Origin: a virus | DNA: 20,723 bases | UHGV virus genome: UHGV-0278151 | Direction: 5' to 3' (one strand) | In this document: piece after piece, positions 17,243 through 17,318 of the stretch | Numbering within the stretch: the stretch's first letter is position 1 | Layout: each line of letters opens with the position of its first letter | Translations under genes and position numbers: made by a program | The notes under the pieces: model-generated | What the model was told of the DNA's origin: nothing | Databases searched by the model: none | What the model saw: only the letters and a program-made list of their open reading frames with translations

Positions 17243-17318
17243 TGGAGCGAGCAGCGGGAATCGAACCCGCATCATCAGCTTGGAAGGCTGATGCTCTATC
17301 CGGATGAGCTAGTGACGG
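17243..17318 (-). tRNA. tRNA-Gly(UCC)-like gene with non-pairing acceptor stem (probable pseudogene or tRNA-like element)
   Basis: The minus strand reads CCGTCAC TA GCTC ATCCGGATA GAGC A TCAGC CTTCCAA GCTGA TGAT GCGGG TTCGATT CCCGC TGCTCGC T CCA. The D arm (G18G19), anticodon arm (UCC), T arm (TTCGATT) and encoded CCA are canonical. From the anticodon stem to the CCA it is nearly identical to E. coli glyT as I recall it. The 5' strand CCGTCAC pairs with the 3' strand TGCTCGC at only 2 of 7 positions. Confidence 0.6.

Follow-up and report, generated by a model that had tools for sequence, protein, structure and literature searches.

A probable Arg/Gly hybrid tRNA pseudogene left by deletion between short repeats in the late region of an Escherichia coli prophage

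The stretch of DNA studied here (the window) is the 20,723-nucleotide virus genome UHGV-0278151. The region of interest is matched at 100% identity by the chromosome of Escherichia coli SE11 (NC_011415.1, at about 1.768 Mb), where the locus forms part of a lambdoid prophage. Genes on the minus strand encode, in order, a DUF968 protein, RusA, antiterminator Q and a PemK/MazF-family protein. These are followed by a short tRNA-like element, a TerB-family gene, a DUF3927 gene, two holin genes, an M15 endolysin gene and then terminase. The element, which is referred to below as the hybrid, occupies the slot between the Q antiterminator gene and the lysis genes (Table 1). The RefSeq record for SE11 carries no annotation at its coordinates.

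A consensus scan of the minus strand from 17453 to 17319 finds no sigma-70 promoter of the hybrid's own, and two hairpins resembling intrinsic terminators lie upstream of the tRNA region. Transcription would be driven by the late promoter and, because of these hairpins, probably needs Q-mediated read-through of both.

Table 1. Features at and around the hybrid, in coordinates of the window
Feature	Position	Strand	Description
Antiterminator Q gene	18260-18955	-	
PemK/MazF-family ORF	17665-18066	-	
Two intrinsic-terminator-like hairpins	17511-17489 and 17469-17454	-	upstream of the tRNA region
Hybrid tRNA pseudogene, 76 nt	17243..17318	-	nt 1-36 of tRNA-Arg(UCG) plus the last 49 nt of tRNA-Gly(UCC), with a 9-nt overlap
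Arg-only segment	17292..17318	-	acceptor 5' strand CCGTCAC, U8, A9, D stem-loop, nt 26
Deletion junction	17283..17291	-	sole remaining copy of the 9-nt direct repeat TCAGCCTTC
Gly-only segment	17243..17282	-	rest of the anticodon loop (UCC) through CCA
Terminator-like hairpin and U-run	17195..17236	-	downstream of the cluster; also 3' of the intact cluster in A30

A first-pass annotation of this sequence had described a tRNA-Gly(UCC)-like gene at the position of the hybrid, and such an element is indeed present on the minus strand. Read 5' to 3', it begins CCGTCAC-T-A-GCTC-ATCCGGATA-GAGC-A-TCAGC-CTTCCAA-GCTGA and continues TGATG-CGGGT-TCGATTC-CCGC(T)-TGCTCGC-T-CCA. The Gly-only segment thus supplies the 3' strand of the anticodon stem, the variable loop, the T arm, the acceptor 3' strand TGCTCGC, U73 and CCA. 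The interior is canonical and a CCA end is encoded, as had been claimed. Direct reading and comparison with Rfam both recover the D, anticodon (UCC) and T arms, and U8, A14, G18G19 and a T-loop of the form TTCGAnT are all present. Features expected of a tRNA related to E. coli glyT, namely a UCC anticodon with C35 and C36 (loop CUUCCAA) and discriminator base U73 (...TGCTCGC-T-CCA), are also found. The near identity of the 3' half to glyT, noted at first pass, amounts to 1 difference from the K-12 gene in the last 49 nt (48/49 identical). The first 27 nt, which comprise the acceptor 5' strand and the D arm, show no likeness to glyT; they are identical to phage tRNA-Arg(UCG), and this Arg origin of the 5' portion, D arm included, was missed by the earlier annotation.

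A functional tRNA is closed by a 7-bp acceptor stem. The two strands in this position, CCGTCAC and TGCTCGC, form standard pairs at only 2/7 positions by direct count, in agreement with what had been reported. An alternative 5' strand nearby is ruled out: the complement GCGAGCA, correctly described as missing from the vicinity, has its only occurrence on the RNA strand near 12277, at a distance of some 5 kb. G1:C72, C2:G71 and G3:C70 are acceptor pairs that serve as identity elements for glycyl-tRNA synthetase (GlyRS), and the hybrid has none of them. It also lacks a glyT-like D arm, carrying CCGTCAC at its 5' end and GCTC/GAGC in the D arm where phage and host tRNA-Gly have GCGGGTA and GTAT../..TTAC.

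Gene-finding programs and covariance models treat this structure differently. ARAGORN calls no tRNA anywhere in the window, and this check, which the first-pass annotation had proposed, is in line with an unpaired acceptor. Rfam model RF00005 matches the hybrid (17243-17311, minus strand) with a score of 48.5 bits (E 8e-8), well above the gathering cut-off of 29 bits. The match extends over model positions 8-63 of 71 only, and the alignment excludes both acceptor strands while the D, anticodon and T arms are all paired. The minimum free energy (MFE) structure predicted for the 76-mer retains the hairpins of the anticodon and T arms but is not a cloverleaf. Here the Gly 3' strand is predicted to pair with the 3' strand of the D stem, and the energy of the fold is ordinary (z = -1.55). 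A misread 5' boundary is ruled out as the reason for the missing stem, since it coincides exactly with the 5' boundary of the intact tRNA-Arg genes of relatives, and both ARAGORN and Rfam agree that the acceptor stem is absent.

A search of 5,426 complete E. coli genomes with the 801 bp around the locus as query identified its relatives. Related prophages carry annotated tRNA genes at the exact place of the hybrid. In EC71, genes for tRNA-Arg(UCG), tRNA-Thr(UGU) and tRNA-Gly(UCC) are arranged in tandem and are called by both ARAGORN and PGAP; the TerB, DUF3927 and holin genes that come next are those of the window. The same Arg-Thr-Gly cluster is found in E. coli A30, Z1323CEC0014 and Z1323CEC0011. 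The Arg, Thr and Gly genes of A30 score 55.6, 69.9 and 61.0 bits, respectively, over the full Rfam model (positions 1-71). ARAGORN, Rfam and PGAP therefore recognize three full-length tRNAs in relatives, compared with none or a partial match in the window. The Arg-only segment of the hybrid shows no mismatch to tRNA-Arg(UCG) in the prophages of EC71, A30 and Z1323.

The cargo of the slot between Q and the lysis genes varies, and may be Arg-Thr-Gly, Thr-Gly, Ile-Arg-Lys-Gly or free of tRNAs. The Thr-Gly form is found in 13P484A and in several Escherichia phages. Genes for Ile, Arg, Lys and Gly tRNAs fill the slot in E. coli 720632 (locus L005, 17439-17748), and a DNA methyltransferase gene with small ORFs occupies it in TUM1881 (locus L004, 18983-20720). 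Such differences among prophages that are otherwise very similar show that the Q-to-lysis region is highly mosaic. In 13P484A (NZ_CP019280.1, locus L003), the tRNA-Arg position at about 3506-3600 on the minus strand holds a sequence whose ends are complementary (ACCGCCA...TGGCGGT) and whose alignment to tRNA-Arg is loose. Neither ARAGORN, PGAP nor Rfam (E <= 1) makes a call there, and a tRNA gene may have decayed in the slot a second time, independently of the hybrid.

Comparison with the intact clusters locates the junction within the hybrid. Its nucleotides 1-36 agree at every position with the tRNA-Arg of EC71, and its final 49 nt do so with the tRNA-Gly of the same cluster. The overlapping word, TCAGCCTTC, comprises the 5' strand of the anticodon stem and the first 4 bases of the loop and is common to tRNA-Arg and tRNA-Gly. 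It is the longest word shared by the Arg and Gly genes, and the cluster has only 4 direct repeats, this one included, that reach a length of 8 nt. Two copies stand 157 bp apart in EC71 and A30, whereas the window has one. In alignments of three and of five sequences, the window has one clean 157-bp gap, and both flanks are colinear with the intact clusters. When the A30 cluster is deleted in silico, 154/155 positions match the window. Imperfect homology runs on 3' of the repeat (TCAGCCTTCnAAGnTGATG..GCGGG.TTCGA). Two repeats in the parental arrangement, one of them kept, colinear flanks and a join free of filler DNA together make up the pattern expected of a deletion between short direct repeats.

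The first of three explanations offered at first pass, a tRNA gene damaged at a recombination junction, is thus right in kind. What does not stand is the placement of the breakpoint exactly at the 5' end of the gene. Alignment to related phage tRNA genes puts it in the anticodon stem-loop, at 17283-17291, and the 5' part is not foreign DNA, being derived from the tRNA-Arg of the same cluster.

A joint of this kind could also be made by homologous recombination between two prophages, one of which contributes the Arg side and the other the Gly side. The mosaic nature of the Q-to-lysis region, as seen in 720632, TUM1881 and 13P484A, lends itself to such exchanges, and SE11 has other places that match tRNA-Gly. 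However, both sides of the hybrid match the same relatives (A30 and EC71) at 98-100%, and a single intramolecular deletion is therefore more parsimonious. Exchange between prophages is accordingly a quite improbable source of the junction. The product is the same by either route, a dead Arg/Gly chimera joined at a 9-nt microhomology.

The 3' halves of tRNA genes are frequent targets of integrases, and the 3' 49 nt of the hybrid are close to identical to chromosomal glyT. Both facts speak for a second explanation proposed earlier, in which the element is the 3' remnant of a tRNA gene left by site-specific integration, that is, an att-type duplication of glyT in the prophage. Yet the identical 3' half is part of a complete phage-borne tRNA-Gly gene at the same position in related prophages, and on the 5' side of the breakpoint come the tRNA-Arg of this very cluster and then, farther upstream, more colinear sequence. 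Att-site remnants consist of a 3' tRNA segment at the boundary of an element, next to an integrase gene and with unrelated sequence on the 5' side. The hybrid sits in the middle of a late operon with colinear flanks, and neither an integrase gene nor a prophage end is found among its annotated neighbours (Q, RusA, TerB and holins). An integration remnant is exceedingly unlikely on these grounds.

We conclude that the hybrid is very probably a non-functional Arg/Gly pseudogene produced by a 157-bp deletion between 9-nt repeats in an Arg-Thr-Gly cluster. An ancestral prophage would have carried tRNA-Arg(UCG), tRNA-Thr(UGU) and tRNA-Gly(UCC) genes in its late region, between Q and the lysis genes. 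Deletion between the direct repeats took away the 3' half of the Arg gene, the whole of the Thr gene and the 5' half of the Gly gene. The result is one chimera that remains in register, with the crossover at the same structural position in both tRNAs. Replication slippage or RecA-independent recombination at short homology is the most likely mechanism, and the imperfect homology 3' of TCAGCCTTC may have aided the deletion. Spontaneous deletions between short direct repeats, of which those in lacI are the classic examples, arise by replication slippage or RecA-independent recombination at short homology.

This origin would also account for the deceptive appearance of the element. Both parents have the same 5' strand in the anticodon stem, which is why this stem re-forms. 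With an entire D arm taken from tRNA-Arg and an entire T arm from tRNA-Gly, the interior looks canonical. Only in the acceptor stem do strands of different genes meet, the 5' one supplied by Arg and the 3' one by Gly, and these are therefore unable to pair. Their original partners, GTGACGG in the Arg gene (for CCGTCAC) and GCGGGTA in the Gly gene (for TGCTCGC), have been deleted. Lacking an acceptor helix, a transcript would be expected to escape RNase P as well as glycyl- and arginyl-tRNA synthetase. Defective tRNAs are subject to turnover, and established tRNA biology suggests that the hybrid RNA, if made, would be degraded as one of them. Loss of function is what we infer for the hybrid from these considerations.

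The exact junction occurs in 3/5,426 complete E. coli genomes (SE11, EC21Z-048 and GPEC79-13-647), in one IMG/VR prophage contig and in two metagenome contigs, and is found in 0 of 185,579 GTDB species representatives. Three independent complete assemblies together with the IMG/VR and metagenome contigs rule out an assembly artefact. All extra copies have zero differences from the window across 16249-17984, which indicates one event, and the few differences that exist are located within the MazF-like and Q genes or past them. This distribution fits a rare allele of single origin, in which one deletion event was inherited or transferred together with its immediate context. The allele persists in several strains, and the zero substitutions in this region give no power to tell neutrality from selection.

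The exact parent predicted by the deletion, in which an intact Arg-Thr-Gly cluster would stand between a MazF-like gene and TerB, is found in none of the collections searched, and the ancestor is therefore reconstructed from mosaic relatives. Among complete E. coli genomes, at least 80% coverage of the 801-bp context is reached by the three carriers of the hybrid only. The intact Arg anticodon region is not found when IMG/VR is scanned for it.

A MazF-fold gene had been reported about 350 bp upstream of the element, and the PemK/MazF-family ORF (Pfam PF02452, E 5.6e-14) does end at 17665, 347 bp away. Beyond this proximity, nothing was found in favour of a third explanation, in which the RNA acts as a decoy or substrate tied to the MazF-like gene. 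Linkage between this gene and the tRNA cluster is ruled out, as each occurs without the other in relatives. Intact clusters in EC71, A30 and Z1323 stand behind other genes and have no MazF-like gene. Conversely, TUM1881 carries the MazF-like gene (99% DNA identity) with no tRNA at all, the methyltransferase module coming after it instead.

More generally, the hybrid might be a functional tRNA-like RNA, for example, a decoy or sponge for an anticodon nuclease or for a MazF/PemK-family RNase, or some other regulatory RNA. Survival of the anticodon and T hairpins in the predicted fold is compatible with this, as is the absence of an annotated antitoxin for the neighbouring MazF-family gene. Phage tRNAs can counter defences that target tRNAs (PMC11464382). 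The tRNAs of this kind that have been described are translation-competent and nuclease-resistant rather than decoys (PMC11464382), and the hybrid cannot serve in such a capacity. Decoys would be expected to be conserved or to co-occur with a nuclease. The hybrid is confined to 3/5,426 complete E. coli genomes and 0 GTDB representatives, with all copies tracing to one event, and occurs independently of the nuclease-like gene. Chance deletion fully accounts for its structure, and a functional role is very unlikely.

Folding of a longer transcript gives this idea its most specific form. A 131-nt transcript is predicted to fold better than shuffled sequences (z -2.58; 3/200 shuffles are as good) and to be closed by a 9-bp long-range helix, in which the first 9 nt of the hybrid (17310-17318) pair with TAGTGACGG at 17215-17223. 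Modelling thus suggests that the transcript may adopt a stable structure that is not that of a tRNA. If so, the chimera could be a stable late-operon RNA closed by the 9-bp helix CCGUCACUA/UAGUGACGG and displaying an intact Gly(UCC) anticodon arm. It might then titrate the neighbouring MazF/PemK-family RNase or an anticodon nuclease of the host, or be cut by one of them, and so serve as an accidental RNA antitoxin or decoy. The downstream arm of this helix lies in the loop of the downstream terminator-like hairpin (Table 1). A compensatory mutation downstream of the hybrid is ruled out, given that the same word already adjoins the intact cluster of A30, where it is part of the terminator hairpin. 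The complementarity of TAGTGACGG to the start of the hybrid is a pre-existing coincidence, and there is only a slim chance that such an RNA operates.

The hybrid can be compared with several known systems. Lambdoid prophages, including those of Stx type, carry tRNA clusters between Q and the lysis genes, and the hybrid resembles these in genomic position and orientation. It differs in that the cluster of the window has collapsed into one chimera that lacks an acceptor stem, leaving no working tRNA. Like the classic short-repeat deletions of the lacI type, it has perfect 9-bp repeats 157 bp apart in the parent, of which one is kept, and colinear flanks. Unlike in lacI, the repeats are homologous anticodon-stem segments of two different tRNA genes, and the product therefore mimics a tRNA. 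The resemblance to E. coli glyT runs from the anticodon stem-loop to CCA, with unrelated sequence in the first 27 nt.

E. coli K-12 also harbours tRNA pseudogenes at prophage att sites (for example, ptwF, pauD and pawZ), which are duplicated 3' segments made by integrases at the ends of prophages. The hybrid is similar in being a partial tRNA sequence that is associated with a prophage and not called by gene finders. In contrast to the K-12 examples, it lies within a late operon, and its origin is a deletion that joined two tRNA genes of the phage. Literature searches for chimeric or hybrid tRNA genes in prophages returned nothing specific. The hybrid, which had escaped annotation, belongs to the familiar class of tRNA pseudogenes and reflects an ordinary kind of gene decay. 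It is a mild curiosity, in that an in-register chimera of two isoacceptor families still scores above the Rfam gathering threshold.

The most direct consequence is a correction to annotation, since the unannotated stretch of the SE11 prophage can be labelled an Arg/Gly tRNA pseudogene. Anticodon-stem sequence that is common to different tRNA genes can act as a deletion hot-spot in phage clusters. Such deletions yield chimeras that are structurally dead and yet exceed covariance-model thresholds (48.5 versus 29 bits). Counts of phage tRNAs that are based on Rfam/Infernal matches alone would include the hybrid as a tRNA. No new biological question is opened by it.

Several other features surround the MazF-like gene, which sits between Q and the tRNA slot. 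No antitoxin is annotated or recognizable in its flanks (17459-17660 and 18067-18200), and a 56-aa ORF downstream of it (17629-17459) has no Pfam match. The gene may be an orphan toxin, a toxin with an unrecognized partner, or a phage defence or exclusion gene. The end of this ORF overlaps a perfect 10-bp inverted repeat (TCGATAATCG/CGATTATCGA, 17648-17671). Just past its stop codon is a strong promoter-like site on the minus strand (17601-17629; TTGACA-17-GATACT, 10/12). The first of the upstream terminators in Table 1, which has a 9-bp stem (17489-17511, minus strand), is located about 90 nt beyond this site. The segment from 17256 to 17591 of the window recurs downstream of a different antiterminator gene in Z1323CEC0014. 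The promoter-like site and terminator may therefore constitute a separate module, that is, a second late-promoter/terminator (PR'/tR'-like) arrangement or a small RNA unit. Finally, two near-identical terminator hairpins on the minus strand, CCCGCCGCCGAGCGGG-T7 at 18178-18193 and CCCGCCACTGAGCGGG-T7 at 17454-17469, bracket the MazF-like module, which suggests that recombination between copies of a duplicated terminator brought this module in or replaced what stood there.
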